DNA from: an uncultured Gammaproteobacteria bacterium
GTDB taxonomy: Bacteria > Patescibacteriota > Patescibacteriia > UBA11705 > JABHMO01
Reading direction: 5' to 3'
NCBI GenBank assembly: GCA_964590105.1
Contig: CAZPYM010000002.1
Span: 218,697 to 282,696, forward strand
Length of the DNA stretch: 64,000 nt
This document shows, in pieces, positions 7,316 through 54,027 of the stretch. The notes beneath the pieces are model-generated. The model was given only the letters and a program-made list of their open reading frames with translations, did no database searches and had not been told where the DNA came from. Every line of letters begins with the position of its first letter. The first letter of the stretch is position 1. Both the position numbers and the translations under genes were made by a program.

Positions 7316-7638
7316 TGTGCCTCCCTCGCTGGTTTCTTTTGTAGTATCAGTTCAATCAGTGCACTTATCAATATAGCTGCAATTATTGTAACTATGATAG
7401 CGATTATCGGTATGAGTTTTGATTCCAATCCCCAAAGTTCCATGCCGAATTGAATACCGCAAAGGCACATTCCAATAGAGCTGAGGTCAAAAGCTTTTCC
7501 CCATTTAATATCGTTTCCGTTTATCGGTTTTCCTTTTTCCCTTCTTCCGCTCGCCAAAATGTTGACAATGGCAATGGGAAGAGCCAGTATTAGCCAGAAA
7601 TAAAACCAGAACATAAATACCTCCTTGTTGTTTGTCAA
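7312..7638 (-). CDS. small membrane protein (2-3 TM)
   Basis: Hydrophobic helices; overlaps the downstream gene by 4 nt, suggesting translational coupling. Confidence 0.4.
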   Translation of the reverse strand: MTNNKEVFMFWFYFWLILALPIAIVNILASGRREKGKPINGNDIKWGKAFDLSSIGMCLCGIQFGMELWGLESKLIPIIAIIVTIIAAILISALIELILQKKPAREAQ

Positions 7639-7655
7639 TCAGAGAATAAATTGTT

Positions 7656-8120
7656 TTATTTAGTGGGGACATATAGTTTTATCCCTCGCCAGTCGATTTG
7701 AATAGGTAATCCTTTTAGCGCAGGATCAATTCCAAGTTCGTCAATTTCGTCTTCTGAAATTATTCCATTGCATTCTATCCATTGCCATGTGCGAGCCTTT
7801 AGATATTCTTTCCTTGGCGCATCAAGAAGTTCTTCTAGAAAATTATTATCGTTCATAATTCGTTCAATGTCATTGCTACTCAGCGGTTTTAAATGAATCC
7901 AGTTTGGGCCATTTTGAGCCATGCCGAAACCTGGACAGACAAGGTAGCTGCCGATGTCAATTATTTCACCTTCAAGAGTTTGGATCGGAGTTGTAACCTC
8001 GATCAGCGCGCCACACGGCGGAGCGGTATTTGGGCAATCACTGCTAAATAGTTTTCGTAAATGCGCGGCAATTGGGTCAAAGTAAGCAGGAATCGCTTGG
8101 GGGGTGCTGATGTCTGTCAT
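7656..8120 (-). CDS. hypothetical cytoplasmic protein (154 aa)
   Basis: Intact ORF in an operon-like array; no motif recognised. Confidence 0.4.
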   Translation of the reverse strand: MTDISTPQAIPAYFDPIAAHLRKLFSSDCPNTAPPCGALIEVTTPIQTLEGEIIDIGSYLVCPGFGMAQNGPNWIHLKPLSSNDIERIMNDNNFLEELLDAPRKEYLKARTWQWIECNGIISEDEIDELGIDPALKGLPIQIDWRGIKLYVPTK

Positions 8121-8162
8121 CTTTGTTTCCTCCTGTTGTTTGTTGTCGTTTATGGCTATAAT

Positions 8163-8429
8163 TTATAGCCTGTCCCAAAATGCTTTTAATGGATTATATA
8201 ATTTTGTAATCGGTTGAGGCGGTTTTATACTCATCAATGTTATCCCGAAAATTATTATGCCTAGGAGGCACCATGCAGATAAAAGATACATTATGAGTAC
8301 GGGGACAAAAATTAGGAAAGCGTAGGTCTTGTCTGTTAAGTAGCCGATACAAAAAAAGAATGTCCCGATTGCGCTGAAAAGAAAGATCAGTTTACTGAGT
8401 TTTCTAATGTAAGATTTGCATTCTTCCAT
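8163..8429 (-). CDS. small membrane protein (88 aa, 2 TM)
   Basis: Two hydrophobic helices; heads the small-gene array. Confidence 0.4.
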   Translation of the reverse strand: MEECKSYIRKLSKLIFLFSAIGTFFFCIGYLTDKTYAFLIFVPVLIMYLLSAWCLLGIIIFGITLMSIKPPQPITKLYNPLKAFWDRL

Positions 8430-8565
8430 GGCGGATCTCCTCGGTTGTCAATGAGCAAGTTATTGTAAAGTATCAATTGTAGAAGATTTCGTAAAGGGAG
8501 TGTTACAAGTGTTTATCTTAAAATTAAACAAAACATTACGATTATTTATACTTTGTAAAATCGTA

Positions 8566-8594
8566 TTGACACAAAACAATAAGGTTGTTATCAT
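8566..8594 (+). promoter_or_regulatory. sigma70-like promoter: TTGACA, 17-nt spacer, TATCAT.
   Basis: ttgacacaaaacaataaggttgttatcat lies upstream of the TrmB-like gene. Confidence 0.4.
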
Positions 8595-8712
8595 TAAATT
8601 AACGCATCCCTTTCCTAGCCGCCGTTGGCGGTAGGGTGCGATGTGGGTGAGCAACAAACAGCTTAACTCTCAAGCTAAAGCGGTGAGGTAATTCACAATT
8701 AAATATTGTATT

Positions 8713-9486
8713 ATGAATAATGAACAACTTCTAAATAAGGCAGGTCTTGATGAAACCGAGTCCAAAGTTTATTTGGCTCTTTTGCAATTAGGACCGGCAA
8801 CAGTTAGCGAAATTACCCAGAAGGCCGAAGTTACCAGAACACTGGGTTATCATGTTTTAAATAAATTGGGGATATACGGCTTGGTTGATCAAACTTCGGG
8901 GCATGGACAAAAAGTGGTTTACAGCGCCGAGCATCCTCAGCGGTTAGTTCAATTTGTAAAAAATAAAAAAAATAAGTGGGAACGTAATCTAAAAGAAATT
9001 GAACAGAATTTGCCTGATTTAGTTTTATTGTTTAAGATAGCAGAAAAGCCGACTATTCGTTATCAGCAAGGCGTTGAAGGTTTAAAAAATATTTATGAAG
9101 AAACGTTAGCTTCAACTACGGAAATTTTATCCATTCTTGACGTGGAAGGTTGGGCTAAGCCGGAATTTAAAAATTGGGGAGAGAATTATAATTTTGAACG
9201 GAGTAAACGCAAAATTCATGAGAAAGTTTTACTCTTGGCCACCGAGGTGGCGCGTGATTGGATGAAGAATTTTAAGGGTTCATTTAAATACACTGAATAT
9301 CGTTGGATAAATAAAGAAGAATTGCCGGGGATTGAAGATTTTGGCGGTGAAATAAATATTTACGAAAATAAAGTTGTTATGGCGTTATTAAAACCCGTGC
9401 CAATGGGCGTGATAATAGAAAGTAGGGCATTGGCCAATTTGTTGCGCGGACTGCACAGCCTTGCATGGAACGCTAAAAAAAGTTAG
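8713..9486 (+). CDS. TrmB-family HTH transcriptional regulator (paralog 1 of 4)
   Basis: N-terminal LDETESKVYLALLQLGPATVSEITQKAEVTRTLGYHVLNKLGIYGLV is a TrmB-type winged HTH. Confidence 0.65.
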   Translation: MNNEQLLNKAGLDETESKVYLALLQLGPATVSEITQKAEVTRTLGYHVLNKLGIYGLVDQTSGHGQKVVYSAEHPQRLVQFVKNKKNKWERNLKEIEQNLPDLVLLFKIAEKPTIRYQQGVEGLKNIYEETLASTTEILSILDVEGWAKPEFKNWGENYNFERSKRKIHEKVLLLATEVARDWMKNFKGSFKYTEYRWINKEELPGIEDFGGEINIYENKVVMALLKPVPMGVIIESRALANLLRGLHSLAWNAKKS

Positions 9487-12436: not shown

Positions 12437-12620
12437 CACGGATTACAGATTTGCAGATTTGATGGCGGCAGGACAAGAAGTCACTTGAGGATTTCGTTAA
12501 ATTAGGGTAGAATGTAGATACAAGACGAATTTACGAGTTTTTACAAATATAACAAATAAACGGAGACAAGATTAATTTGTGATATTTGTTATTATTTGTA
12601 AATTTGTTTTACTTGTTAAT

Positions 12621-15449
12621 ATGAAAAAATACGATCACAAAAAAATTGAACGCAAGTGGCAGAAGTTTTGGGAAGATAACAAGTTTTATCGGGCTGAAGA
12701 CGGTTCACCAAAAGAAAAATATTACTGCCTGATTGAATTTCCTTATCCGTCCGGCGACGGACTGCACGTCGGCCATGTGCGCAGTTATACAGCGCTCGAT
12801 ATTATTGCCCGCAAAAAAAGAATGCAGGGATTTAATGTTTTGTACCCGATTGGCTGGGACGCCTTTGGATTGCCCGCAGAAAATTACGCCATCAAAACAG
12901 GTAAACACCCGACTATTATTACCAAGGAAAATGTAAAAGTTTTCACCAAGCAGATCAAAAGCTTGGGGATCAGCTTTGATTGGTCGCGCGAGATTAATAC
13001 TACTGATTCTGTCTATTACAAATGGACGCAGTGGATATTTCTTCAATTATATAAACATGGTTTGGCTTACAAAAAGAAAATGCCGATCAATTGGTGCCCG
13101 AGCTGCAAAATTGGTTTGGCCAATGAAGAAGTTATTGACGGTAAGTGCGAGCGTTGCGGCGCGGAAACGGAGAAAAGAGAATTGGAACAGTGGATGTTAA
13201 AAATTACCGCTTATGCCGATCGCCTGATTGAGGACTTGGAAACAGTTGAATATCTGGAAAAAATAAAAACTCAGCAGATCAATTGGATAGGACGAAGCGA
13301 GGGCGCGGAGGTGGATTTTCAAGTGAAAAATTTCAAAGATAATATTCGCGTTTTTACCACTAGGCCGGATACTTTGTTTGGCGCCACTTTTATAGTTTTG
13401 TCGCCCGAACATGAGTTGGTCAATGAAATTACAACCAAGGAGCAAGAGGCTGCAGTATTAAAGTATCAGGAAGAAGCGCGAAAAAAATCTGACTTGGAAA
13501 GGACTGAACTTCAAAAAGAAAAAACAGGTGTATTTACCGGCGCTTATGCTATTAACCCGGTTAATAAAAAGGAAATTCCGATTTGGATTGCCGATTATGT
13601 AATGATGAGTTATGGCACCGGCGCTATCATGGCCGTCCCCGCGCATGATGAAAGAGATTGGGCTTTTGCAAAAAAATATAAACTGGCAATTACCCTGGTT
13701 TTAATGCCTTTTATCCGGGCGCAAGAAAAAGACTTGCCGCGAGTAGACAAGAAAACAGTAAAACGAAATAATGTAATCGTTGTTTTAAAGCATTGGGCAG
13801 AAGAAAAATATTATTGTTTGGATTGGAAAAAATTCGGCTGGACTTCTTTTGTGGTCGGAGGAGTGGAAGATGGCGAAGACTTTGAAACAGCAGCCATTCG
13901 AGAAATGAAAGAAGAATCTGGCTATCAAAATATTAGATCAATAAAACGTTTGGGCGGGCAGATCGCCACAGAATTTTTTGCCCGGCATAAAGATGTTAAT
14001 CGCGAGACGATTATCGAGGGTTATTATATTGAACTTCAGGATGGTGAACGTATTTTGCCGGCGGAAGAAGATGTTCAGTATCACGATGGTCTATGGGTGG
14101 ACAAAGACAAAGTAAACACTTTTATTAATTTGGAAAATCATGCTTGGTATTTCGATATATTAATGAAAGGGGAACAGGTTTATTCCGGCGACGGCATCAA
14201 TATTAATTCTGATTTTTTGGATGGCCTAAAAACTGCTGACGCAAAGAAAAAGATTTCAGCTTGGCTAGAAAAAGAAGGGCTTGGCAAAAAATCGACTAAT
14301 TATCATCTCCGCGACTGGGTTTTTTCGCGCCAGCATTACTGGGGCGAGCCGATTCCAATGGTTTATTGCGTTGAGTGCGGCTGGCAGCCGATTGATGAAA
14401 AAGAACTGCCATTAAAATTGCCAATGGTAAAAAAATATGAGCCGACCGACACGGGCGAGTCGCCATTAGCTTCGATCGAAAAATGGGTAAATACAATTTG
14501 TCCAAAATGCAAAGGTAGAGCAAGACGAGAAACTGACACTATGCCAAATTGGGCTGGGTCGAGCTGGTATTTTCTGCGTTATGTTGATCCGGAAAACAAT
14601 GAAAAACTGGCTGACTTGGAAAAATTAAAATATTGGACACCTGTTGATTTGTATAATGGCGGCATGGAACACACAACTCTGCATTTGTTGTATTCCAGGT
14701 TTTGGCACAAATTCTTGTATGACATTGCGGCTGTGCCGACGCCGGAGCCGTATCAAAAGCGCGTTTCGCACGGCATGATTCTGGCGTCTGACAATCAAAA
14801 AATGTCAAAGTCCCGTGGCAATGTGCTGAATCCGGACCAAATTGTCGAAGAATATGGCGCCGATGCTCTGCGTCTTTATGAAATGTTCATGGGGCCGTAT
14901 GATCAGGCGGTGGCCTGGGACACAAATGGTCTGCGCGGTATAAAAAAGTTTTTGGATCGGGTTTGGGCGGCTGAAAACAGAGAAGATGACAAGGGGGTGA
15001 CTGCGCTACTTCACAAAACAATTAAAAAAGTTACTGAAGACATTGATAAAATGCATTTTAACACGGCAGTCGCGGCCATGATGATTCTCCTTAATAAAAT
15101 TCAGGAAGCCGGTTGTTCTAAACAAACATTTGAAAAGTTTTTGATTATGCTCAGTCCTTTTGCCCCGCATCTTGCCGAAGAAAAATGGAGCGCGCTGGGG
15201 AATGAGGCGGGTATTTCTTTGCAAAAATGGCCGCAGTTTGACGAAGCGCTGGTTATTGATGAGCAAATTCAAATTCCGGTGCAAATCAATGGCAAAGTGC
15301 GTGACAAACTTTTGGTCAGCGCAGATATTGTCGAGGAAGAGCTTAAAAAGTTGGCTCTGGCTAGCGACAAAGTGCAGAAACATTTGGCTGAACGGCAAGT
15401 GAAAAAAATTATTTATGTGACAGGCAGGTTGATCAGCATAGTTGTATAA
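12621..15449 (+). CDS. leuS: leucyl-tRNA synthetase carrying an internal Nudix-box-containing insertion
   Basis: HIGH-like HVGHVRSY, KMSKS, and the conserved blocks AVPAHDERDWAFA and LRDWVFSRQHYWGEPIP. The insert at about nt 13685-14290 contains GGVEDGEDFETAAIREMKEESGY. Confidence 0.9.
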   Translation: MKKYDHKKIERKWQKFWEDNKFYRAEDGSPKEKYYCLIEFPYPSGDGLHVGHVRSYTALDIIARKKRMQGFNVLYPIGWDAFGLPAENYAIKTGKHPTIITKENVKVFTKQIKSLGISFDWSREINTTDSVYYKWTQWIFLQLYKHGLAYKKKMPINWCPSCKIGLANEEVIDGKCERCGAETEKRELEQWMLKITAYADRLIEDLETVEYLEKIKTQQINWIGRSEGAEVDFQVKNFKDNIRVFTTRPDTLFGATFIVLSPEHELVNEITTKEQEAAVLKYQEEARKKSDLERTELQKEKTGVFTGAYAINPVNKKEIPIWIADYVMMSYGTGAIMAVPAHDERDWAFAKKYKLAITLVLMPFIRAQEKDLPRVDKKTVKRNNVIVVLKHWAEEKYYCLDWKKFGWTSFVVGGVEDGEDFETAAIREMKEESGYQNIRSIKRLGGQIATEFFARHKDVNRETIIEGYYIELQDGERILPAEEDVQYHDGLWVDKDKVNTFINLENHAWYFDILMKGEQVYSGDGININSDFLDGLKTADAKKKISAWLEKEGLGKKSTNYHLRDWVFSRQHYWGEPIPMVYCVECGWQPIDEKELPLKLPMVKKYEPTDTGESPLASIEKWVNTICPKCKGRARRETDTMPNWAGSSWYFLRYVDPENNEKLADLEKLKYWTPVDLYNGGMEHTTLHLLYSRFWHKFLYDIAAVPTPEPYQKRVSHGMILASDNQKMSKSRGNVLNPDQIVEEYGADALRLYEMFMGPYDQAVAWDTNGLRGIKKFLDRVWAAENREDDKGVTALLHKTIKKVTEDIDKMHFNTAVAAMMILLNKIQEAGCSKQTFEKFLIMLSPFAPHLAEEKWSALGNEAGISLQKWPQFDEALVIDEQIQIPVQINGKVRDKLLVSADIVEEELKKLALASDKVQKHLAERQVKKIIYVTGRLISIVV

Positions 15450-27158: not shown

Positions 27159-27899
27159 TTATCTTATACTATTCCAAACCAAATTCCAAATTGATTTCAT
27201 GGTTTGCGCGATGGCCTTGTCTTCAATAATCACTGCGGCATATGGTTTGCGGAAAGAGATTAAGGAAACTTTATTTTCGTAAATGTTTATTTCCGTTTCA
27301 AAATCAATGTCCGGCACCAGCCGTGTTTTGCGGAGCTGTTGTTGGTCCTTGTCTTTGATCAGCCGTCCCTTTGGCCCGTCTTTGGCTATGCAATAAAAAA
27401 AGCATTTGTTTTTCACGCGCGCCTCCGGCCCGGCCTGCCATAAAAAATCCTCGGGCAAAGTTTCAAACATTTTTTCATAATCTGTAAATCCGTATATTTT
27501 TCCGTCCGGAACAGAATAGTCGGCGTAAGCCGCGCGCAGGCCCTCGAGCCCTTGATAAAAGCGAACCTTGGGTTTTTTTGTTGGGCGATTGAAAATGCTT
27601 AAAATTTCTGGCAGGGCTTTTTGTACTTCATTTAGCCGTTCTTGCGCGCGCTTTAGCACAGTTTCCGGATTTTCCGGTGCCAGCAAAAGTTTTTTATTTT
27701 TTTTTATTTCGGTCAGCAGTCCGAGATTTTTCATTTCTTCCAAAAAATTATAAATACTGGTGCGTTTTACTTTTGATTTTTGCGCCAGTTCCTGAATCGT
27801 GGCAGAGCCCAACTCCAAGCAGGCTAAATACACTTCAGCTTGTCTTGGCTGAATGCCAAGTTTTGTTAGGGAATCGAGTAGGTATTTCATGTTTGTCAA
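27159..27899 (-). CDS. TrmB-family HTH transcriptional regulator (paralog 4), divergent from the radical-SAM operon.
   Basis: QPRQAEVYLACLELGSATIQELAQKSKVKRTSIYNFLEEMKNLGLL. Confidence 0.65.
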   Translation of the reverse strand: MTNMKYLLDSLTKLGIQPRQAEVYLACLELGSATIQELAQKSKVKRTSIYNFLEEMKNLGLLTEIKKNKKLLLAPENPETVLKRAQERLNEVQKALPEILSIFNRPTKKPKVRFYQGLEGLRAAYADYSVPDGKIYGFTDYEKMFETLPEDFLWQAGPEARVKNKCFFYCIAKDGPKGRLIKDKDQQQLRKTRLVPDIDFETEINIYENKVSLISFRKPYAAVIIEDKAIAQTMKSIWNLVWNSIR

Positions 27900-28018: not shown

Positions 28019-28147
28019 ATGATTTTAGTTAATTTTGTCTATGTTTTAGACACTATATCATGCAAAAAATAATCTGTCAAATTCTTGTAATTTTATTAAG
28101 CATTCGTCTATTGCTACTCTTCGTATAGTTTTTTTTAGTCCTTATTG

Positions 28148-28176
28148 TTGACAAGATATTTTTAACTTAATACAAT
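28148..28176 (+). promoter_or_regulatory. consensus sigma70 promoter: TTGACA, 17-nt spacer, TACAAT.
   Basis: ttgacaagatatttttaacttaatacaat; downstream SD aaggagggggcATG. Confidence 0.55.
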
Positions 28177-28226
28177 AAGATGTTTATGGAAAGTTCTTTG
28201 ACAGTTGCCTTTAATAAGGAGGGGGC

Positions 28227-29786
28227 ATGAACTATCTGCACGTGGAATTACCGAGTTTGCATTTGGTTTGGAAACGGGATGGGCAAACGGATGTTGTGTG
28301 TTCTGTGATTCGCACCAATTATCCGAAGCCGAGCCTGCTATTGGTGCCGGCAATTATGCGGACATCTGGCGTGGCGGAAGTTAGAGTAATTGATATGAAG
28401 ATTCGCGATCAAGACGTCATTGTTCCTTACTGTGAATTTAATTACGGTGAAGGAAAAATGGTGGCGTCCAGAATGGGAATGCCGTTTGACTCGATCCGGA
28501 GCCAGCTGGAATGGGCTGATATTCTTGGGCTGACCATCAATCCAAGTTCGTGGGCCAATCTCGCGGTTGATTTTGCCGGTTATGCCAAGTGCGTGAATCC
28601 GCAAATTAAGATAATTATTGGCGGTACGGATGCGACATTCAGGCCGGAATTTTATCTGCGCCACGAGCATTTTGAAAAGCGCAGACTGTTTGATTTCGTT
28701 GTAGTGGGAGAAGGAGAAGTCGCCGGGCCGGAACTTTTGCGGCGGCTGGAGTTCGGCCAGCAGGTGGATGAAATTTTTGGTGTAGCTTATTATTCCGACG
28801 GTAAAGTAATTATGAACGGAATAAATCGCAATGTTTGCCTTGACGATGAACCGCTACCGGCGATGGACTTGTTTGTTGATGACATGTCGCTCTGGACAAC
28901 ACCGATTGAGGGTTACGTCGGAATGGAAGTGCGGCCGCCGATCGCGCCGCTCTACATTACCCGCGGGTGTAATAATGCTTGCGAGTATTGTACGACGCCA
29001 CAGAAATACGGTCGGCTTCGGTTCAAGTCGTTGTCTCGGGTGGAAGAAGAGCTTAAGCATTTTAAAACGTTCGGCATTGGCACGATCAATATCTGGGATG
29101 ATTCTTTGAGCTCATTGGTCGGCCGTGGCGAACGGGATTTGTTGATTGGATACATCAGGTTGATCCGGCAATATGGATTTTCGTTTGAATACGCGCAGGG
29201 AATGGTGATCCGTGATTTATGGAATAAGGAGAAGAACGAGCCAGACTTTGCGTTGATCAAAGAGCTGTACGGACACGCAATTGTTGACGGCCAGTTTGTC
29301 GGCTGTTACGGACAATATACGCCGTTTGAATTTTTGCAGACGGAAAATCCTCATGATTTGAACAGCAAACTGATTCCCTTTGATAAAGAATTGCGCGTCT
29401 TGCAAGCGATTCTTGACCAAGGGGTAAGATATTTGAGCTATTCTTGTATATTGGGGCGGGCCGATGACAGCGCCGAGCAATTCCGGCTGGCGGAATCGCG
29501 CATGAAGCAAATTCAGGGCATTATTGAAGCGGCCGGGGCGCGAGGTCTGGCTACGCCGTACATTTATTCAATTTTTCCCGGAACTAGAATATGGTCACGG
29601 GAAATTGAACGATTGGATTATTCGATTGAAGAGTATCCGGAATTGTATCAGCTGAACGCGGCGCCGCATGGGACAACGCATTTGACGCCGGGTGAGCTGA
29701 TGCAAGCCAAGCTTGATTTGGAAAGGGAGTCCTTGGGCGAGGAAAGGTTTAAGTGTTGGATTAAAACAGGGCGATATCAATGGTAG
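28227..29786 (+). CDS. B12-binding (class B) radical SAM enzyme
   Basis: N-terminal cobalamin-binding-like domain and CxxxCxxC (RGCNNACEYC). Confidence 0.75.
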   Translation: MNYLHVELPSLHLVWKRDGQTDVVCSVIRTNYPKPSLLLVPAIMRTSGVAEVRVIDMKIRDQDVIVPYCEFNYGEGKMVASRMGMPFDSIRSQLEWADILGLTINPSSWANLAVDFAGYAKCVNPQIKIIIGGTDATFRPEFYLRHEHFEKRRLFDFVVVGEGEVAGPELLRRLEFGQQVDEIFGVAYYSDGKVIMNGINRNVCLDDEPLPAMDLFVDDMSLWTTPIEGYVGMEVRPPIAPLYITRGCNNACEYCTTPQKYGRLRFKSLSRVEEELKHFKTFGIGTINIWDDSLSSLVGRGERDLLIGYIRLIRQYGFSFEYAQGMVIRDLWNKEKNEPDFALIKELYGHAIVDGQFVGCYGQYTPFEFLQTENPHDLNSKLIPFDKELRVLQAILDQGVRYLSYSCILGRADDSAEQFRLAESRMKQIQGIIEAAGARGLATPYIYSIFPGTRIWSREIERLDYSIEEYPELYQLNAAPHGTTHLTPGELMQAKLDLERESLGEERFKCWIKTGRYQW

Positions 29787-29899
29787 TTTTTTTGTAAAAA
29801 ATCAGCCCAATTCAAGGAATTGGGCTTCTACTCGCGAAATTAAATTCTTGATTTTGCATGTGGAAGTTGTTCTTTGAAATATAAAGGAGGTGATTGACC

Positions 29900-30271
29900 A
29901 TGTGGTGGATCATTGTTTTGGTTTGTGTCTGTGCGGTGTTAATTACAACTGTAAGTTTGGTTGTGCATCATTATCGGTATTGTAAATTGTATGAAGTTGA
30001 TGCTGTTATTAAGCAATCCGGGGTAACTGGTGTTCCATGGCAGTTTGCTGATATTGACTATGAACGTCACACTGGGACTAAAGTTTTGGGACGCCGAGTA
30101 TTTACAATTATTGTTGAAACAGAATTTGGTGAGCGAGACTGGAATTATGTGGAATATATAAAAGATGGCGATGCAGAGAGACGAATACATTTACCGGCTA
30201 ATCGTTCGAAAACAAAATTGTTAACCACGCGTTGTGGTAAAAGGGCTTATTCTTTGGATTGGTTTGAATAA
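29900..30271 (+). CDS. small membrane-anchored protein (123 aa)
   Basis: SD aaaggaggtgattgaccATG; N-terminal TM WWIIVLVCVCAVLITTVSLVV. Confidence 0.5.
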   Translation: MWWIIVLVCVCAVLITTVSLVVHHYRYCKLYEVDAVIKQSGVTGVPWQFADIDYERHTGTKVLGRRVFTIIVETEFGERDWNYVEYIKDGDAERRIHLPANRSKTKLLTTRCGKRAYSLDWFE

Positions 30272-30283
30272 AAGGAGGACAAC

Positions 30284-31447
30284 ATGAAAGACCAATTTTT
30301 AGAATTAAAAGATGTTTTAGTTGAACCAGAACAAGGCCTGCGTATCGTCGGCCGGCATCTGATTCCGGCTGAACCAATGCCCGAGCGGCCATTGCCGGCT
30401 CTGCGGGAAGATTATCTTTCCGCGGTCGAAGCCGAAGCGGTAAAACAACACAACTTGCGCTGGGCAAATGGTTTGGAAGAAAAGCCAAAGTTGTTGTTGG
30501 CGTGGCTCATGTTGCCGACGCGTTGCAATCAGTGGTGCCGCGGCTGTTATGCCGGCAATGATAAGAAAAAAACAAACAGTATATTGCCACAGTTTTATTC
30601 GGAGGCAAAGCTGAAAGAAATGCTTGATTCTTTGCGGCGGCATGGAGCTCGGACGATCGGCTACGCCGGTCTTGGCGAACTTTTCACAATGCGCCGGCCG
30701 CATTTAGCTATAAATGCGCGGGAATACATTGAACGCATTATCGGAGCCGGATTCAATATGTTGATTTTCACCAATGGCACGCTTTTGTCGGTTGATGATA
30801 TCGAGTGGTTGGCCAAGCGCCCGATCAGTTTGATTTTTTCTTTGCGGGACATTGTGGAAAGCGAACATAACGGCATTGTCCGTTTTAACGGCTTTCGTAA
30901 AACCTTGCGAGCTTTAGAGCTGGCTTTGCGCGCCGGTCTGCACAAGGCTAATCGGATTGGCGTGGAAATCCCTGTGATTCATGGCAATATGGAGCGAGTA
31001 CTTAATGATTTTATCCCGGCCATGCGGCACTTGGGAATTATTCCTTACGCTGAACAATACATGCAGGTTTGCACTTCGTCGGAAGAAAAGAAAATGGGCT
31101 TGAGCTTTGCCGAGGCGCGCGAATTTTTCCGACGGGCGCAGGCGATTGAAAGGCGATTCGGCTATGTTCACGCGCCGTGTTTTGCGCAAAGGATGGTGTC
31201 TCAAGACAAGTGTATTCGGCCGGTTTTTTCTGTAACGATTTATCCGAATGGCGCGGTTACGCCCTGCCCGGGAAATTCGGAAAAACTTGGTAATATTTAT
31301 GACGTGTCACTTGATGAAATTTTGAATTCAGACAAGTATAGAGAGTGGGTCAAGCGATTTGAATTGTGCGCTTGTTCAGTGTTTTACACTGAGAGCGATA
31401 AAGAAATTCCACCCAACATGCCGCAATTTCTGGAGGAGTTCAAATGA
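30284..31447 (+). CDS. radical SAM enzyme with a C-terminal SPASM/twitch-like Cys-rich domain
   Basis: CNQWCRGC (CxxxCxxC) and C-terminal CFAQ...CIRP...CPGN...CAC cysteines. SD aaaggaggacaacATG. Confidence 0.75.
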   Translation: MKDQFLELKDVLVEPEQGLRIVGRHLIPAEPMPERPLPALREDYLSAVEAEAVKQHNLRWANGLEEKPKLLLAWLMLPTRCNQWCRGCYAGNDKKKTNSILPQFYSEAKLKEMLDSLRRHGARTIGYAGLGELFTMRRPHLAINAREYIERIIGAGFNMLIFTNGTLLSVDDIEWLAKRPISLIFSLRDIVESEHNGIVRFNGFRKTLRALELALRAGLHKANRIGVEIPVIHGNMERVLNDFIPAMRHLGIIPYAEQYMQVCTSSEEKKMGLSFAEAREFFRRAQAIERRFGYVHAPCFAQRMVSQDKCIRPVFSVTIYPNGAVTPCPGNSEKLGNIYDVSLDEILNSDKYREWVKRFELCACSVFYTESDKEIPPNMPQFLEEFK

Positions 31448-32577
31448 AAACAATTCACGACGTTCCAATTGTTTTTCCGGATAAGTTTCCTGCTGATTTC
31501 GACAATCGAATTCAGCACTGGGGATTTTTCACCCGCGAAGAAGTTGAACGCGATCGCGGTCGACTTCTGATGCTGGATTTTGACTTTGGCGGCTATTGTT
31601 CACTGAACTGTCCGGATTGCTATCGTAAACACAATGTGATTGACGAAGCTTTGCCCGGAGAGTTGACTTACAAACAACAGCTGGCGGTCATTGACGAAGC
31701 AATCAAACTTGGATTGCGAAGCATAAAGATCTGCGGCAAAGGCGAGCCAACAGAAGACACGCGTTTTTTGCAGTTCGTGCGCGATTTGAGCGATCGAGGA
31801 GTCGGTGCCGCAGTTTTCACTGCCGGGCAAGTACTCGGCCATGATGAGAAAGCGCGACAGGTTAATCGCAAATATGGCGTTAAGAATGCAAAGCACCTTT
31901 GCTCTGAACTGGCCAAACTGAAAGTCAGTTTTATGCTGAAGTTTCAGTCATTTTATTCGGAGATTCAGGATCGGCGAGTTGGGAAAAATGGGCATACTGA
32001 AATCCGTGACCGGGCGTTGTTGAATTTGGTCGGCGCTGGTTTTGCCGATAGTTTTCCCACGCGCCTCGCCACTTGTTCCAATCCCATAGTTCAGTCAACG
32101 GCGCAGGAAGTTTTTGACATCTATGCTTGGTCAAGGCGGCGTAATATCTATCCGATCACCGCCGCCCTGATGGTCAGCGGCAAGCAGATTGATCAGCGAT
32201 TTTTGCTGGAGCATGATATTTCCGATGAGGAAAAGATCGCGCTCTGGACTCGGATTTATCGTTGGAATATTCGGCATGGTTTGCAAACGCTGGAACAGAT
32301 TGAAGCTGGAGGAGTTTCAGTCTTGCCCGGCATGCATCCGTGCAATCAGATCGCTGCTGGGCTTTATGTTTCTTTGACCGGCAATGTGATCATGTGTCCA
32401 GGCGCGACCGAATCGCTAGGCAATGTCAAAGATGAATCCCTGTCCGTTATTTGGTGGCGGTATATTGAAGCGAGTCGTAACGTCGGTTGTTTCAACTGCT
32501 GGTGTCCGCCGAAAGATGGAGTTACAATACCTGCGAATTTGTACAGACGAGTTTTGAAAAATTTGCAAAGCATATAA
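31444..32577 (+). CDS. radical SAM/SPASM enzyme, paralog of the upstream gene (ATGA overlap)
   Basis: CSLNCPDC motif; C-terminal CNQ...CPG...CFNCWC cysteines. Confidence 0.75.
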   Translation: MKTIHDVPIVFPDKFPADFDNRIQHWGFFTREEVERDRGRLLMLDFDFGGYCSLNCPDCYRKHNVIDEALPGELTYKQQLAVIDEAIKLGLRSIKICGKGEPTEDTRFLQFVRDLSDRGVGAAVFTAGQVLGHDEKARQVNRKYGVKNAKHLCSELAKLKVSFMLKFQSFYSEIQDRRVGKNGHTEIRDRALLNLVGAGFADSFPTRLATCSNPIVQSTAQEVFDIYAWSRRRNIYPITAALMVSGKQIDQRFLLEHDISDEEKIALWTRIYRWNIRHGLQTLEQIEAGGVSVLPGMHPCNQIAAGLYVSLTGNVIMCPGATESLGNVKDESLSVIWWRYIEASRNVGCFNCWCPPKDGVTIPANLYRRVLKNLQSI

Positions 32578-32629
32578 CAAAAATCCCCGTCTCGATAATA
32601 TTCGAGCGGGGTTTTTTTTATGTTTTTTA

Positions 32630-32893
32630 TTACCCTGTCGCGCTTTTCAGTTGCTCTCGCGAGTTGTCTTGATCTCCGTTCGGAAGCGCATTCAAAAAGA
32701 ACATTTCAACTCGACCGTGGAACAATTTCTCAAGCATGGGGATGAGATTGTCCGTGCTGTTTCGTTCGTCGTAAAGTATACAGCAATCATTTTCGTCCGC
32801 TACTAAGTACCAGCCATCGATCCAGTGGTCCAGCCATTTGTTGGTCGGAACATGCAAGAGTCTGTGTGATCTAGATTCTCCCTGATTAGTCAT
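32630..32893 (-). CDS. small hypothetical protein (87 aa)
   Basis: SD aagggggaaaaaaATG; start taken at the internal Met. Confidence 0.4.
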   Translation of the reverse strand: MTNQGESRSHRLLHVPTNKWLDHWIDGWYLVADENDCCILYDERNSTDNLIPMLEKLFHGRVEMFFLNALPNGDQDNSREQLKSATG

Positions 32894-32992
32894 TTTTTTC
32901 CCCCTTGGAAAGACAAACATGTCAAGGCGGTATATTAGCAATATTATAAAGATGTGTCAAGGCATGAAAAAAGCAAGCAGTGATTGCTTGCT

Positions 32993-34581: not shown

Positions 34582-36342
34582 CTACCAGGGCAACGCGTCG
34601 AGAACGGTCCTTGTAATAAACATACTATCTGGAGAGAGATAGTTCGCTATCCCCCAAACTATCCAAGGCAAGACGGCCCATTTCCATGCATTTTGCCAAC
34701 GCACTTGTACATAACCCCCCAATAGAACTAGAAGAGGGTCCCCGATTAAACGATTGGACCAATGTTCGTGCCCAACTTTCCAGGCCGACACTCCTTTTCC
34801 TAAAATTCCCAATTCAAGAAGGTATTCCATGAGCTCCCATCCGTATGCAATGGCGAGCGTGATACTGAGTAGCTTCATTACTGAAAGCTTTGGGCAGAAG
34901 CGCTTCAGGGATGCAAGTACGACTACGCCCCAGAGAAAGTGCTCAATAGACCACATGTCGAGCATCACCGCTTCTCTGTCGATGCCATACTTTTCTGGCA
35001 CAACAAGGCAGATAGCGAGTAGCCCGATCAGGGTATCATGGAGAATGATCATGGGTTTTGAGATACTTGTCGGATCCCACTTTACAAATTTGTAAACCAA
35101 GAATACCAGAAATGCCAGCAGCTCATTCGCCTTATTTGTAAGAAAGATGAAAAAGCCGGAGAGCGTGGATATGGACAAGGCGATCCACTTGGCGGGTGAA
35201 GTTCCCAGCGTGACTGGCAAAGTGTTTTTGTGTCCTGTGTCAATGGTCACATCTTCAATGTCCTTGATAATCTCTCGCCCAAGGATCAAAGTGAAGAACA
35301 CACTGTACCAAGTCCAGATATACGCATCGTTCCTCTGGAAAAATACTGAACCGCACAGGACAGGGCTTGCGCCACATCCAGCCACGATCAGATTGTTAAT
35401 AACAACCAATTTCTGGAGGTATGAGTAGGCAAGGCCAAGCACTAGAATGCCAAAGCAGAAAAGTGCCACGACAGTATTTAACGTTGCAAGTATACTGATC
35501 GTTGTCAAGGTGAGCCCTGTGAGTCTGACCCAATATGACCAGAATGCCTTAGGATGATCATACGCCAACCGTTTTCCCTTTTGCAAGTCGTGGCTTCGAT
35601 CATACCAATCATTGAAAGTCATGATGGACATGTGTAGCAGTGAGCAGGACAGCGCTGTAAACAAAGCGACCATCCAGTCTATGTGATTCTCCCCATACAT
35701 TACAAATCCGGATAAGGCGAGGAGAAATGTGAAGATAGTCCCCCGGATCCTTCCGGTTTTCACGAACTCAACGAGTGGCGGCGCCTGCGATTCGAGCGGG
35801 TTTTTATGACCGAGGATTACGTCTACCAAAACCGCGCTGAGAAACACTAGATATCCAGCCACAATCAAATAGCTCGGCGTCTTTTCAATATTTCCAGACA
35901 AAACATGCAAAAGACAGATACTTGAAACGGCCACGTTCACTCCAAAATACACAAGGTGAACTTTACCGCCAAGACTGACCTTGCCAGGCGCTGGAAAGCT
36001 CCAATTGGGTTTATACTTCTGATGTGTCCCGACTCTGTACCACGACCAGATCCCAAATATGGAAAGGAAAAGAAAGATTAACCACTCTCCAAGTTCGATC
36101 CGTCCGTACCAGGCCAGGTGTGCAAAGCCTGAGACGACCAGCCCGAGTCCAACCATGTCGCCCCAAGTTTGACAATGGGCGTCTTGCCAATGATTGAATT
36201 TTTGGTTTGTGCCGTGGATGGCACTACCGCGCGCAGGGATTTTCCCTTTTTTTAGTTCCCATTGCTGCACAAGATATTGCAATAGGCAAGCGATCCCGTT
36301 CAAGAGGAGGCTTGCCAGGACGAGAGTCCAGTTCGGTGTCAT
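34582..36342 (-). CDS. UbiA-family prenyltransferase fused to additional N- and C-terminal polytopic membrane domains (586 aa)
   Basis: NDWYDRSHD (NDxxDxxxD) and a second Asp-rich motif KDIEDVTIDTGHKNTLP. Confidence 0.65.
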   Translation of the reverse strand: MTPNWTLVLASLLLNGIACLLQYLVQQWELKKGKIPARGSAIHGTNQKFNHWQDAHCQTWGDMVGLGLVVSGFAHLAWYGRIELGEWLIFLFLSIFGIWSWYRVGTHQKYKPNWSFPAPGKVSLGGKVHLVYFGVNVAVSSICLLHVLSGNIEKTPSYLIVAGYLVFLSAVLVDVILGHKNPLESQAPPLVEFVKTGRIRGTIFTFLLALSGFVMYGENHIDWMVALFTALSCSLLHMSIMTFNDWYDRSHDLQKGKRLAYDHPKAFWSYWVRLTGLTLTTISILATLNTVVALFCFGILVLGLAYSYLQKLVVINNLIVAGCGASPVLCGSVFFQRNDAYIWTWYSVFFTLILGREIIKDIEDVTIDTGHKNTLPVTLGTSPAKWIALSISTLSGFFIFLTNKANELLAFLVFLVYKFVKWDPTSISKPMIILHDTLIGLLAICLVVPEKYGIDREAVMLDMWSIEHFLWGVVVLASLKRFCPKLSVMKLLSITLAIAYGWELMEYLLELGILGKGVSAWKVGHEHWSNRLIGDPLLVLLGGYVQVRWQNAWKWAVLPWIVWGIANYLSPDSMFITRTVLDALPW

Positions 36343-36457: not shown

Positions 36458-36629
36458 TGTAGGAAAGAAGGGGCGACTGACACAAGCTTGTGTCTTTTTT
36501 CTGCCTGCGGACTTTGGATACCGCGCGATACGCCGAGGCGCAAAGGGTCGTGCCGAGGGCTTTCTTAATCCCCACGGCCTCCCTATCGCTTAACAGATCT
36601 TGGACACATTGACTTGTGCCAGCCACCAG

Positions 36630-36703
36630 TGGAGCCAGAAGGAATCGAACCTTCGCCTTCCGCTACGCAAGAACGGCGCTCTGCCGGTCTGAGCTATGGC
36701 CCC
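36630..36703 (-). tRNA. tRNA-Ala (anticodon TGC)
   Basis: Cloverleaf GGGGCCATAGCTCAG...CTTGCGT...GGTTCGATTCC...TGGCTCCA with the G3:U70 identity pair; CCA is not encoded. Confidence 0.85.
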
Positions 36704-36970
36704 AGTTGAGAAAAAGAATTTTGGTAAAGCCCGCATATCTCCCGTTTAGCAGGATCAAGGAGAATATGCGGTTTTGCCGGCGAGGACTTTGCATCTGGTA
36801 ATGAACGGGTTCAACTGCCATGCGTCGGAAGTGCAGTCGGGAAGTAGTTCTTTCCGGCCCCGCGATAGCGCTTCCGTGGCACGCACAGTCACCGCCGCCA
36901 TTGCTGGTCGTATTGCCGGAGTTAGCGAAGCTCCGGTAATCAACCCTTCAGCCTCCTGCAAGGCCAATCG

Positions 36971-37043
36971 TGCGCCCAAAGGGATTCGAACCCTTGACCC
37001 TCGGATTAAAAGTCCGATGCTCTACCAACTGAGCTACGGGCGC
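36971..37043 (-). tRNA. tRNA-Lys (anticodon TTT)
   Basis: GCGCCCGTAGCTCAGTTGGTAGAGCATCGGACTTTTAATCCGAGGGTCAAGGGTTCGAATCCCTTTGGGCGCA. Confidence 0.9.
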
Positions 37044-41294: not shown

Positions 41295-41613
41295 TAAATT
41301 GGTTCTGAACAAGCAGAACCGTTGCTCTTTGCCTTTTGGCGGAGAGAGGAAAGTCCGGACTTTCAGTCATTTTTTGACGCGGGTAGCAGGTAATTCCTGT
41401 CAATCGTGAGATAGAGGTGCGAGCAGAGACGCCTGGCAAAGTAATTTGTCAGGAACCCCTCGGGGTTAGTCTTGGTGGAAACATCAAGAGTGAAACGGCT
41501 AAACCCTTGCCTGAAAGCAAACCCAAGTTTGGTAGGGTGCTTGAGTCGGAGAGTGATCTTCGGCCCAGATAGATAACGGCTAAAACAGAATCCGGCTTAC
41601 TCGCTTGTTCAGG
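41295..41613 (+). ncRNA. rnpB: RNase P RNA (bacterial type A)
   Basis: GAGGAAAGTCCGGACTT and ACAGAATCCGGCTTAC conserved blocks. The 5' ctgaacaagc pairs with the 3' gcttgttcag (P1). Confidence 0.85.
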
Positions 41614-41659
41614 ACTTTTTTATTATCACGAATTGCCCGAATTGGCGCGAAAAAATATA

Positions 41660-51147: not shown

Positions 51148-54027
51148 ATGACTAAATTCACCAAACTATTTATTTTATCAACAGTGGTTTTAATATTACT
51201 GCAATCTTTTAATTTAATATATTTTGTTTCAGTTCCGACTGCTCTGGCCTCTGCGAAACAGTGCGACTGTGCAGGAACTTCATATCCGCCGGCTGATCCG
51301 TGCACTGCCGCATGCGTAGGTAAGCTTCCTTTGGTTACGGACGTGTGCGTTTGCGATGACGGAACAGTAGAAGATATAAAATTGCCGACTGATACTTGTG
51401 CTGTCTTGTGCCCGGTGGCGCCCCCGCCTACGCCTAAGCCTACGTCCCCTGCTCCTTCAGGAACACCAAAATCCACTCCGTCGGCGGTTCCAAAGGCTGG
51501 CTTTAATTTGGAAGAAGCGAAGATCAATATTCAGTTCGGCGATCTGCCTACGAGTTTTACGGCCGTGGATGAGGCGCCGTGCAAATGCACCCCCGCGGAA
51601 AAAGCAAAAGATGCAAAATATTGCGAGGATTATGAAAAGAAAATGTGCATCCGTATTCCCTGGGTTGCTCAATATCTGAATGCGGTTTATCGCTATGGCG
51701 TGACGCTCGGATCATTGCTTGCTGTATTAATGTTGATGATCGGCGGGGTGATGTACATGATGGGCGGACTGAATCAGACCATGATTTCCAAAGCCAAGAG
51801 CATGATGTCCGGCGCGGTTTTAGGTTTAATCTTATTGCTCGGCACTTATGTTTTGTTGAATACTATTAACCCGAATTTAATAAAATTGGAACCGATAAAG
51901 ATTGAGGTAGTCAGAGAGAAGGGGATTTCTTCCTTTACTTTTTGTAATGAGGTGCCAGCAGCTAAGTACAAGGTGACTGATAATACGTGTGGCCAGGAAG
52001 GTTCGTATGAAATAAAAGATAAAAGTATTGACGAAGAACCTGGCAAGTGTATTGGCTCTATATGTAAGCCATCGGCAGATGGGCACAAACAATGGTGTTT
52101 GCCGTCACCAGAAGACAAAGCGATGAAAGAAAATAAAGTTACTTGTATTGACGCCGCGGTTTGGGGATATCTGAAGTATGATGATGGCAGGTTTTTGGAT
52201 TCGATAGGTTTATATGCTTTGGGAGGATATAGTGATGCGGATTGTGTAGCATTAGATAGTGACGCTACTTCCACCTGCGCCGACCCGATTAAAGATAACC
52301 CAGGAGACGGCGATAAAGTATATTATATTAGATGGAGTGATATAAAGGCCGCTGTGGCGAGTAAAAAATCGAGTGCAAAAGATTCATATATGCTGATGAT
52401 TGAACTTAATGATACCGGGGCGTCCAACGCCGCTGTCACCAATTCCAAAATTGTTGTTGCTACCCAGGCGGGCATGAGTTGGATTGGCTTTGACGGAACA
52501 ATTGACGATGAGTATTATGTCGCTCTAAATCCGGAAAATCCTATTAGCACAGAAAAAGATAATGAGGCTTATAATGGTATATGGATAGAGCCTTGCGACA
52601 CTACTGTTGTTTGGATGAGTCCCAAGGGGGAGGGCTGGATGTCCGGCGGACTCCCAGCGGAAAAAGGGAAAAAGTGGAAAACAATGAGGGCTTATGATGT
52701 TGAAACTAGTGGTATTAGATTAGATATTGATTCAAAAGATTTTCAAGAGGACGCGGATATTGATTGTTCTTTAGCTGATAAAATGTTCGGTGCTTCATTG
52801 AAGGTTGGAGCAATATGTGGAAGTAATAAGGAGTGTCTTAGCGATGATTGTGAACTGGAGCAGGGATCAAAGAGATGTGAATGTAATGAAGATGAAGATT
52901 GCAAAAATGAAGTTGCTCCGGGAGATCCGCAAAAAGACAAGTTAGTTTGCGCCACCTCTTGGAATATTTGGAATAGTTGTATTGTGGGTAAGGCAATTGG
53001 CGCATCTTGTTCGGACAATAGCCAGTGCAACAGCGGTAGTTGTTCCGGCGGAAAGTGCGAATGTTCAAAAAAAGAGGATTGTGCATATCAGCCTTATAGT
53101 ACAGCACCGGATTTTTTCAAGAAGAAAAAGATAGACGGAGTTTTGTATGGTTATGCCTGCATTAAAAATATATTTTCGGCAAATGAGTGTAAGTATAAGA
53201 GAGAGCAAGGTGAAGCCTGTGATAAGGCTGAGCAATGTATCAGCAATAATTGTGTGGGTGGATCTTGTATGTGCGATGACGATGCTGACTGTCCAGAAGG
53301 ATCATATTGCGAAACCGTGACCGGTGCTTGTATGTTGCAGCATCTTAATTTGGAAATATGTGACGAGGGAAATAACAAATCTTGTTATAAGGGCATGGAT
53401 TGCGAGGAAGACCACTGGTATGGTGAGGGAACTACAGAAACGCGATGCGAATGTAACAATAATGAAGATTGTGGGCCGGATGCCGTTTGTATTGACATTG
53501 AGGATGGTTGCGGTTGGAATTATTGTCTTGCGAACGACGTGGGTGCGCCTGGTGTGCCATATGGCTATAGCTCTGTTGGTGATTCAACTGTAGTTGCGTC
53601 GCAAAAATATTGGGGACTTTGTGATGCTGATTCCGATTGCGCCGGTACAGCTTTGTCGCCGGGTGATTGTATAACAGATTGGGGAAAGAATAATTGTAAT
53701 GCTTGCAAGAGCACTGATGGAACAGCTTTGATAGGGGGAAAATGTCCTAGTTCTGATAAAGATGCTTGTGGCTATAAGCTTTTTTGTACAGATGAGTGGA
53801 GCACAAATATTTGTGCTCCCGCGTCAGCTATCGCCTGCGGCATCAACGATAGTTTGTGCGTTGGTGGTGGATGGAAAAAGGGAACTTGCGAGGGAACCCT
53901 TTGCGATTGTGGTGGCGATGATGACTGTTCGGCTGGTTATCTGTGTGCAAATAATACGTCCGGTGAGTATAACGGCAACGATATGTGCATCCCTGATTCA
54001 TACAAAGATATTGCTGATAACCTTTAA
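51148..54027 (+). CDS. secreted 959-aa cysteine-rich protein with an embedded T4SS-pilin-like (PF18895-type) transmembrane hairpin
   Basis: Signal peptide. IGGVMYMMGGLNQTMISKAKSMMSGAVLGLILLLGTYVLLNTINPNLI matches the GG..YM.GGN...AK...IGL...IVNxI pilin pattern. About 720 aa of CxxxxC/CxSxxC modules follow. Confidence 0.6.
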   Translation: MTKFTKLFILSTVVLILLQSFNLIYFVSVPTALASAKQCDCAGTSYPPADPCTAACVGKLPLVTDVCVCDDGTVEDIKLPTDTCAVLCPVAPPPTPKPTSPAPSGTPKSTPSAVPKAGFNLEEAKINIQFGDLPTSFTAVDEAPCKCTPAEKAKDAKYCEDYEKKMCIRIPWVAQYLNAVYRYGVTLGSLLAVLMLMIGGVMYMMGGLNQTMISKAKSMMSGAVLGLILLLGTYVLLNTINPNLIKLEPIKIEVVREKGISSFTFCNEVPAAKYKVTDNTCGQEGSYEIKDKSIDEEPGKCIGSICKPSADGHKQWCLPSPEDKAMKENKVTCIDAAVWGYLKYDDGRFLDSIGLYALGGYSDADCVALDSDATSTCADPIKDNPGDGDKVYYIRWSDIKAAVASKKSSAKDSYMLMIELNDTGASNAAVTNSKIVVATQAGMSWIGFDGTIDDEYYVALNPENPISTEKDNEAYNGIWIEPCDTTVVWMSPKGEGWMSGGLPAEKGKKWKTMRAYDVETSGIRLDIDSKDFQEDADIDCSLADKMFGASLKVGAICGSNKECLSDDCELEQGSKRCECNEDEDCKNEVAPGDPQKDKLVCATSWNIWNSCIVGKAIGASCSDNSQCNSGSCSGGKCECSKKEDCAYQPYSTAPDFFKKKKIDGVLYGYACIKNIFSANECKYKREQGEACDKAEQCISNNCVGGSCMCDDDADCPEGSYCETVTGACMLQHLNLEICDEGNNKSCYKGMDCEEDHWYGEGTTETRCECNNNEDCGPDAVCIDIEDGCGWNYCLANDVGAPGVPYGYSSVGDSTVVASQKYWGLCDADSDCAGTALSPGDCITDWGKNNCNACKSTDGTALIGGKCPSSDKDACGYKLFCTDEWSTNICAPASAIACGINDSLCVGGGWKKGTCEGTLCDCGGDDDCSAGYLCANNTSGEYNGNDMCIPDSYKDIADNL

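Follow-up and report, generated by a model that had tools for sequence, protein, structure and literature searches.

The 64,000-nucleotide stretch analysed here (the window; positions 218,697 to 282,696 of contig CAZPYM010000002.1, GenBank assembly GCA_964590105.1) comes from an uncultured bacterium of the Patescibacteriota lineage, and carries an operon of three radical S-adenosylmethionine (SAM) enzymes together with a small membrane protein. Comparison with related loci identifies this operon as one version of a modular cassette. The constant unit of the cassette is a divergently transcribed regulator gene and a twitch-type radical SAM enzyme, here called SP2; a second twitch-type enzyme (SP1), a radical SAM enzyme with a B12-binding domain, and a third twitch-type enzyme (SP3) are interchangeable, optional modules. 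The cassette is rare and, to judge from the protein sequences, mobile across bacteria of the candidate phyla radiation (CPR) and DPANN archaea. As to its function, we tentatively favour, at somewhat below even confidence, an inducible, regulator-controlled set of radical SAM enzymes that tailors a small imported metabolite and not a ribosomal peptide.

Operon, regulator and modular architecture

The operon runs on the plus strand from a promoter-like site at 28148–28176 to a terminator-like hairpin at 32585–32619 and contains four open reading frames (ORFs): the B12-domain enzyme of 519 residues (28227–29786), which belongs to a rare family; an orphan protein of 123 residues with a single N-terminal hydrophobic segment, here called TM123 (29900–30271), a lineage-specific passenger or accessory gene; SP1 of 387 residues (30284–31447); and SP2 of 377 residues (31444–32577), the last two reading frames overlapping via ATGA. 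An earlier interpretation made from the DNA letters alone (the sequence-only reading) had placed all four ORFs at these positions, and its description of a consensus promoter and strong Shine-Dalgarno sequences holds as well. The promoter-like site reads TTGACA-17-TACAAT, agrees with the consensus at 11 of 12 positions, and is conserved in the two closest loci with the same three enzymes, L011 (Kuenenbacteria) and L012, and AAGGAGG sequences precede the operon genes. The distal hairpin, CCCCGTCTCG-(8 nt)-CGAGCGGGG followed by T8, lies just past the SP2 stop codon and resembles a bidirectional intrinsic terminator; it was read directly from the sequence, the sequence scan having caught it only in part. 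A further hairpin with a 10-bp stem lies between the B12 gene and TM123 (29804–29826), and is terminator-like on the minus strand only, although no gene there needs one; bordering the lineage-specific TM123, it may be a trace left by the insertion of that gene, or else a site of processing.

Divergent from the operon lies the gene for a TrmB-family helix-turn-helix regulator (27159–27899, minus strand; Pfam TrmB 49.4 bits), with a promoter-like site of its own (28052–28080, minus strand; TTGACA-17-TATAGT with TG, 11 of 12 positions) whose −35 element is kept in L011 and L012. The region shared by the two transcription units also holds a candidate operator at 28037–28051, the perfect palindrome GTCTATGTTTTAGAC (GTCTA-N5-TAGAC), which is invariant in the window, L011 and L012. 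The intergenic regions of these three loci can be aligned over both divergent promoters and the palindrome. GTCTA-N5-TAGAC occurs once in the window against a chance expectation of 0.00, and recurs, again as a single copy per locus, in 10 other distinct loci. Nine of these have a resolved layout, in which the palindrome is located between the genes for the regulator and for the radical SAM enzymes; in L091, a fragment without a regulator gene, it stands just upstream of the B12 gene, and the genes flanking it in L106 are not identified. Where the B12 gene heads the operon (seven loci), the palindrome is found 185–215 nt upstream of its start. The enzyme genes of the palindrome-bearing loci are B12-SP1-SP2, B12-SP3 or SP1-SP2, and a single pair of regulator and candidate operator thus appears to govern differing enzyme combinations. 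We consider this common palindrome the strongest evidence that the enzymes form one functional system.

The modular character of the cassette is apparent from the gene maps of about 85 loci with SP2 and 20 loci of the B12 family, in which ORFs were classified by hidden Markov models. SP2 is accompanied by neither SP1 nor the B12 enzyme in 68 loci. By the same classification SP1 is immediately upstream of, and overlaps, SP2 in 13 loci, and SP1 is always found in this position; counted as distinct loci beyond the window's own contigs, the overlap occurs in 14, of which 12 have SP1 and SP2 only and the other two are L011 and L012. The complete trio of B12 enzyme, SP1 and SP2 is confined to the window's own contigs, L011 and L012. 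In CPR genomes, the divergent TrmB gene is followed either by SP2, optionally preceded by the B12 enzyme and SP1, or by the B12 enzyme and SP3. The latter, a protein of about 355 residues, is a distant relative of SP1 and SP2, and the TrmB, B12, SP3 arrangement is the usual one among metagenomic loci of the B12 family. Homologs of the TrmB-like regulator are found, likewise divergent, in 22 CPR loci and another 16 B12-family loci. In DPANN archaea, a protein with a double Lrp/AsnC unit takes the place of the divergent regulator (24 loci), and SP2 is again optionally preceded by a B12-type gene (B12x) and SP1. Archaeal versions of the B12-family locus have a divergent Lrp/AsnC gene followed by the B12 enzyme, a methyltransferase and a small radical SAM protein.

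A scan with one genome per species returned 80 SP2 loci, about half of them in DPANN archaea (Woese-, Pace-, Iain-, Micr-, Aenigm- and Nanoarchaeota) and many in CPR bacteria (Patescibacteria), with scattered occurrences in Bacteroidota, Ignavibacteria, Balneolaceae, TM6, Chloroflexi, Thermodesulfovibrionales and one deltaproteobacterium. The window proteins come from a metagenomic contig of 594 kb, and the best named relatives of the window are Kuenenbacteria and other Patescibacteria. The window SP2 is 56–58% identical to DPANN homologs, compared with 40–54% for most other CPR homologs, and in a neighbour-joining tree of SP2 the CPR and DPANN sequences are intermixed, with the window clade nested among archaeal sequences. 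Together, the identities and the tree argue for repeated cross-domain transfer between CPR and DPANN. In the same tree, SP2 proteins with an SP1 partner form one major clade. A phage origin was considered and rejected, a search of viral contigs having found no relative.

The layout resembles that of catabolic or salvage operons that are induced by their substrate and have an ABC importer and a divergent TrmB or Lrp/AsnC gene, in that it has a divergent regulator of a ligand-responsive type, a shared intergenic region with a palindrome and, in the free-living versions discussed below, an importer with a binding protein. It differs from them in that the enzymes of the cassette are solely radical SAM proteins, and a literature search retrieved no described operon of a regulator with radical SAM enzymes only. 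In the libraries and papers searched, none of the three families is described, and neither is a regulator-linked modular cassette of this kind or its occurrence in both CPR and DPANN.

The three radical SAM families

The radical SAM superfamily and its subclasses are well known, but the three families represented in the operon are uncharacterised. Membership in the superfamily is indicated by Pfam Radical_SAM matches and by high-confidence structure models that superpose on solved radical SAM enzymes, and the CX3CX2C motif is invariant in the alignments of all three families. None of the three proteins is a housekeeping enzyme, since every NCBIfam match is far below the curated cutoff (best scores 63 bits against a cutoff of 575, 32.7 against 380, and 38.5 against 380). 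The sequence-only reading had named two outcomes that would speak against a specialised role, i.e., homology to enzymes such as MiaB, RlmN or anaerobic sulfatase maturase (anSME), or universal conservation of the cluster. The first is not seen, given these scores, and RlmN and anSME are absent among the NCBIfam matches of the window proteins; as for the second, all three families are rare. Identities as MiaB/RimO, MoaA, PqqE/MftC, AlbA, NirJ/AhbC/AhbD, HpnR/HpnJ, BchE and Tes were likewise rejected, all scores being below the NCBIfam cutoff. A search of the window proteins against PHROGs gave no match.

SP1 (motif CNQWCRGC) matches both Pfam Radical_SAM and, with 38.8 bits, SPASM above the cutoff, and SP2 (CSLNCPDC) falls just below the cutoff for both models. 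Seven cysteines are invariant in the SP1 family alignment, namely Cys81, Cys85 and Cys88 of the SAM cluster motif and the C-terminal Cys310, Cys328, Cys362 and Cys364. The C-terminal spacing C-x17-C-x33-C-x-C is common to the two families; in SP1 all four of these cysteines are invariant, and of those in SP2 three are invariant and the other is found in 88% of the members. Four conserved C-terminal cysteines fit a single, predicted auxiliary cluster in a twitch-type domain. The partial Pfam SPASM match and the structural neighbours BtrN, MoaA and SkfB agree with this assignment, and neither family alignment shows the seven-cysteine, two-cluster SPASM motif (CX9-15GX4C...CX2CX5CX3C...C). The two enzymes had previously been read as a paralogous pair with C-terminal, cysteine-rich SPASM-like domains. 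The enzyme class, radical SAM with an auxiliary cluster, and the cysteine-rich domain stand, but a full seven-cysteine SPASM domain does not, and the paralogy is distant: at 21% identity (E 2e-4), SP1 and SP2 are best regarded as remote paralogs, each in its own compact and well-conserved family. The SP1 family comprises about 48 clusters and the SP2 family about 100, with 161 SP2 representatives at E ≤ 1e-30 among 1.84 billion.

Compared with characterised twitch enzymes (BtrN, MoaA, SkfB and SpeY) and the SPASM/twitch subgroup, SP1 and SP2 are only 12–19% identical to any solved enzyme, have their own cysteine spacing, and form separate, uncharacterised families. A phmmer search of the PDB with either sequence gave no match; the SP1 profile does match SkfB, TigE and CteB there. 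Some SP2-related proteins carry additional domains. In CPR, an N-terminal signal or transmembrane (TM) segment together with a domain of about 100 residues is present in some of them, namely P0200 and P0204 (loci L077 and L080); the SP2-like P0259 is fused to a response-regulator receiver domain, and more distant relatives are fused to metallo-beta-lactamase domains.

In the 519-residue protein, the motif CNNACEYC provides Cys248, Cys252 and Cys255. The class given in the sequence-only reading, a radical SAM protein with a B12 domain, holds: the Pfam B12-binding model (PF02310) scores 36.9 bits against a cutoff of 32.1, next to a Radical_SAM match, and the predicted fold matches MgmA, CysS and TsrM. 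The PF02310 match spans profile positions 50–120 only. We assign the protein to the class B type on the basis of this B12-binding (Rossmann) domain; cobalamin binding and methyl transfer would be the corresponding activities. In relation to MgmA, CysS, TsrM, TokK and OxsB of class B, and to AprD4, the protein is 13–16% identical, and peculiar to its family is a strongly conserved extension at the N-terminus (ELPSLHLxW...IRTNYPKPS...DMKIRDQD). The nearest structures, AprD4, CysS, TokK and OxsB, represent enzymes with small-molecule as well as protein substrates. Among structures AprD4 matches best; it is a diol dehydratase and not a methylase, and methyl transfer by the window protein is therefore at most putative. 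AprD4 is reportedly an enzyme of the B12 fold that does not bind cobalamin. The family is small, at about 42 clusters in 5.8 billion, and beyond these there is a gap to E ~1e-12. In the L011 ortholog (7254–8795), codon 16 is an in-frame TAG beyond which the sequence is still conserved, which suggests a pseudogene or an error of sequencing; a genuine stop codon would mean that the B12 module is dispensable in that genome.

Gene context and the nature of the substrate

Evidence on the substrate comes mainly from gene context. In free-living lineages, i.e., Bacteroidota, Ignavibacteria, TM6, Balneolaceae, a deltaproteobacterium and Thermodesulfovibrionales, SP2 is found inside an ABC importer operon, either alone, with SP1, or with SP1 and the B12 enzyme. 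Typically, two ATPase genes come first, then the genes for a binding protein, SP2 and a poorly conserved protein of about 350 residues, and lastly two permease genes; the binding protein (encoded, for instance, at 11104–12204 in L038 and 8891–9997 in L062) is closest to Leu/Ile/Val-binding proteins of the LivJ type (E 2e-36). This embedding points to a small-molecule substrate. A pyridoxal phosphate-dependent PALP enzyme and a CsaA-type tRNA-binding protein each accompany SP2 in five loci, and additional B12 radical SAM proteins and SufS also recur as neighbours. An amino-acid-like or otherwise anionic substrate is favoured by the similarity of the binding protein to LivJ, by the PALP partner, by the regulators of Lrp/AsnC type and by basic residues conserved in SP2, whose pocket is lined by the conserved residues D45, D47, R61, K95, R231 and K357.

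In the mechanism that we tentatively propose, the regulator would sense the substrate or the product, and the operon would be switched on in response. The enzymes would then act in sequence on a single small metabolite, probably anionic or amino-acid-like, taken from the host or the environment. Each would cleave SAM at its CX3CX2C cluster, and the resulting 5′-deoxyadenosyl radical would abstract a hydrogen from the substrate. The single four-cysteine auxiliary cluster of SP1 and SP2 may bind the substrate or take up an electron, and the chemistry of these two enzymes could be a dehydrogenation, an epimerisation, or the formation of a C–C or C–X bond, as in the small-molecule enzymes BtrN, MoaA and BlsE. 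For the B12-domain enzyme we envisage the addition of a methyl group or, alternatively, a cobalamin-independent rearrangement or dehydration as with AprD4.

Several observations weigh against the tailoring of a small imported metabolite. The argument for a small molecule leans on gene context, mostly from other lineages, and the window's own operon contains no transporter. CPR bacteria are not generally known to make cobalamin, which would render a B12-dependent step costly. In Bacteroidota, SP2 is fused or adjacent to a protein of about 350 residues with a CxCH motif that could be a substrate. Finally, small membrane ORFs (91–156 residues) without homology to one another adjoin the B12 gene in five loci: the window (TM123, 29900–30271), L012 (6569–6925), L097 (7200–7670), L101 (1729–2004) and L102 (4124–4561). 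That in L012 is a multi-TM protein of 118 residues in the slot of TM123. In L097, the palindrome is upstream of the small ORF, which therefore appears to be part of the operon. Recurring ORFs of this kind would fit immunity proteins for a toxic product, and together with the CxCH-motif partner they leave some probability to a protein-substrate or immunity function. A search for homology among the small membrane proteins of the operon slot found none.

With respect to the CxCH-motif protein, three fused members of the SP2 family (P0209, P0213 and P0215) carry a C-terminal domain of about 330 residues with the motif C(R/K)CH(K/E)GVSN and no Pfam match. A homolog of this domain is encoded by the gene that follows SP2 directly in Bacteroidota importer loci (L062, 11124–12242; L065, 11124–12143). 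It is possible that proteins with this motif are partners or substrates of SP2. The SP2 neighbours of about 350 residues could not be treated as a single family; they are too divergent to align, and just the Bacteroidota subset matches the fusion domain.

The sequence-only reading had taken the combination of a B12-type and two SPASM-type enzymes as a hallmark of the maturation of ribosomally synthesised and post-translationally modified peptides (RiPPs). Here, SP1 and SP2 would crosslink or epimerise a peptide or partner protein and the B12 enzyme would C-methylate it, the gene for the substrate being unrecognised, highly variable or located elsewhere, and the small membrane proteins serving as immunity proteins or as the substrate. 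We consider this unlikely. It is in line with the SP1 profile matches to SkfB, TigE and CteB, with weak NCBIfam matches to sactipeptide and other maturases, and with the variable small membrane ORFs and the CxCH-motif partner described above. Sactipeptide, ranthipeptide, PQQ and mycofactocin clusters also resemble the present operon in having multiple radical SAM enzymes of a shared fold, at times with a B12 methylase among them. The cassette differs from them in its regulator and importer context, in having four and not seven auxiliary cysteines, and in lacking the genes by which such clusters are recognised. A profile search at E ≤ 0.1 detected no PqqD or RiPP recognition element domain on the enzyme N-termini, that of SP1 being 80 residues long, and the 51 residues of SP2 that precede the cluster motif are mostly coil in the structure model. 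A search for short precursor ORFs, as suggested in the sequence-only reading, covered the DNA up to 2 kb from the enzymes in about 85 loci and yielded no conserved free-standing family of 18–90 residues; the recurrent small-ORF clusters that did emerge were rejected as precursors, all being antisense or off-frame shadows of SP2, regulators and ABC ATPases. No gene for a leader peptidase or exporter is present in the window or among the recurrent neighbours, the transporters, where present, are binding-protein importers, and every maturase family model scores far below its cutoff.

The specific substrate candidates do not fare better. TM123 had been proposed as one, but tblastn and phmmer searches of about 110 loci, including L011, L012 and the fusion extensions, found no homolog; its 90%-identity cluster has one member, and it has no match in Pfam, NCBIfam, PADLOC or PHROGs. 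The proposed 87-residue ORF (87/103 residues, 32630–32941) is on the opposite strand past the operon terminator and is conserved only in L011. An ORF of 250 residues, also on the opposite strand past the terminator, was rejected as well, being conserved in no other locus. For one of the distant cysteine-repeat proteins that had been put forward (51148–54027), 19 kb away, no link to the operon was found. This protein (plus strand, 959 residues) contains 72 cysteines (7.4%), an N-terminal signal-like segment, internal TM helices and a long Cys- and Asp-rich C-terminal region; with a weak match to pilins of type IV secretion systems, it has the look of an extracellular pilin-like protein. Taken together, the comparison of neighbourhoods across genomes proposed in the sequence-only reading revealed a regulator-linked modular cassette in place of the RiPP or lipid context that had been anticipated. 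The co-occurrence of B12 and SPASM-type radical SAM enzymes should not, by itself, lead to the call of a RiPP cluster.

A viperin-like function, in which a nucleotide or common metabolite is converted to a toxic analogue for antiviral defence or competition, would be suggested by weak matches of SP1 to the pVip model of PADLOC (33 bits, E 9e-9; 15.6 bits for SP2) and to the NCBIfam viperin model (30.1 bits). The surroundings of the importer-type cassettes are also suggestive. Several free-living loci are flanked by DUF1156/DUF499, AIPR, DarT-Macro, SIR2 and NB-ARC genes, and at E ≤ 1e-10 PADLOC recognised 102 defence families in 113 flank proteins of 14 ABC-type loci (among them L006, L008/L028 and L009/L026), including AbiU (three proteins), DarT/DarG, Hma, AbiE, Shedu and type I methyltransferases; in L009/L026, the DarT-Macro (DarTG) pair is inserted within the cassette itself. 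The control, 140 flank proteins of CPR and DPANN regulator-type loci, gave 18 families. From this contrast, importer-type cassettes are situated in defence or variable islands and those of the window's type are not, and the window operon has glycosyltransferase and envelope genes as neighbours. The viperin cutoff is 180 bits, far above the score of SP1, no homolog was found in viral contigs, and a binding-protein-dependent importer is not a known component of defence systems. Assignment of the window proteins to a known defence system was rejected, their resemblance to pVip in PADLOC being weak, and we regard the antiviral function as decidedly improbable.

Lipid tailoring, the second function raised in the sequence-only reading, appears still less probable. 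In this case, scavenged lipids would be methylated, cyclised or coupled tail to tail, as by the tetraether enzymes Tes, Grs and Gms of archaea, the associated methylase HgmA and the hopanoid methylases. CPR and DPANN organisms generally rely on host lipids, the B12 enzyme weakly matches the HpnJ, HpnR and ladderane models, and a UbiA-family prenyltransferase gene lies 2 kb downstream of the operon. The latter, however, co-occurs only in the close relative L011, where it is 91% identical compared with 60–73% for the radical SAM genes, which indicates ordinary synteny. Furthermore, the NCBIfam Tes model matches no window protein, the importers of the free-living loci are of the LivJ type, and no lipid gene recurs among the SP2 neighbours. 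The UbiA protein itself (34582–36342, minus strand; 586 residues) is about twice the usual length, with extra membrane regions at both termini.

Least credible of all is the tailoring of a tetrapyrrole or other cofactor in the manner of Ahb/NirJ (alternative heme, heme d1), with the archaeal Lrp/AsnC-like neighbour as a decarboxylase subunit: SP1, SP2 and SP3 weakly match NirJ, NirJ1, NirJ2, AhbC and AhbD and also match a tungsten-cofactor maturase model, the B12 enzyme weakly matches BchE, and the double Lrp/AsnC protein weakly matches AhbA (34.7 bits), but all scores are 10–20 times under the cutoffs. True regulators are a better match for the Lrp/AsnC protein (57–80 bits), CPR loci use TrmB in the same divergent position with the conserved palindrome, and none of the neighbourhoods contains a siroheme or heme gene. 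Peptide maturation, antiviral, lipid and tetrapyrrole functions are thus all weaker explanations than the tailoring of a small metabolite.

Elsewhere in the window, the leucyl-tRNA synthetase (12579–15449, plus strand) has a NUDIX hydrolase domain inserted at approximately residues 420–512, after the editing domain. A bacterial class A RNase P RNA is encoded at 41306–41615 (plus strand) and marks the window as bacterial, and genes for tRNA-Ala(TGC) and tRNA-Lys(TTT) are located on the minus strand at 36629–36703 and 36970–37043, respectively.

Implications for CPR and DPANN symbionts

If the enzymes do tailor a small metabolite, then two twitch radical SAM enzymes and an enzyme of the B12 fold acting on one free metabolite would constitute undescribed chemistry. 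A bolder extension, which we hold to be improbable, is that of a mobile system operating across domains to sense, import and radically modify a compound, by which CPR and DPANN cells convert a host-derived metabolite into a compound otherwise out of their reach or, alternatively, make a toxic analogue. Should the toxic analogue be real, the importer-linked version in defence islands would represent a new small-molecule-based system of defence or competition. Experimental handles are provided by the regulator with its palindrome, by the binding protein that the importer versions encode, and by the three soluble enzymes.

CPR bacteria and DPANN archaea are regarded as symbionts with a minimal metabolism, and an enzyme set exchanged between them probably touches on what such symbionts take from their hosts. 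The identity of the substrate would add new radical SAM chemistry, and could reveal a salvage or antagonism pathway specific to episymbionts.

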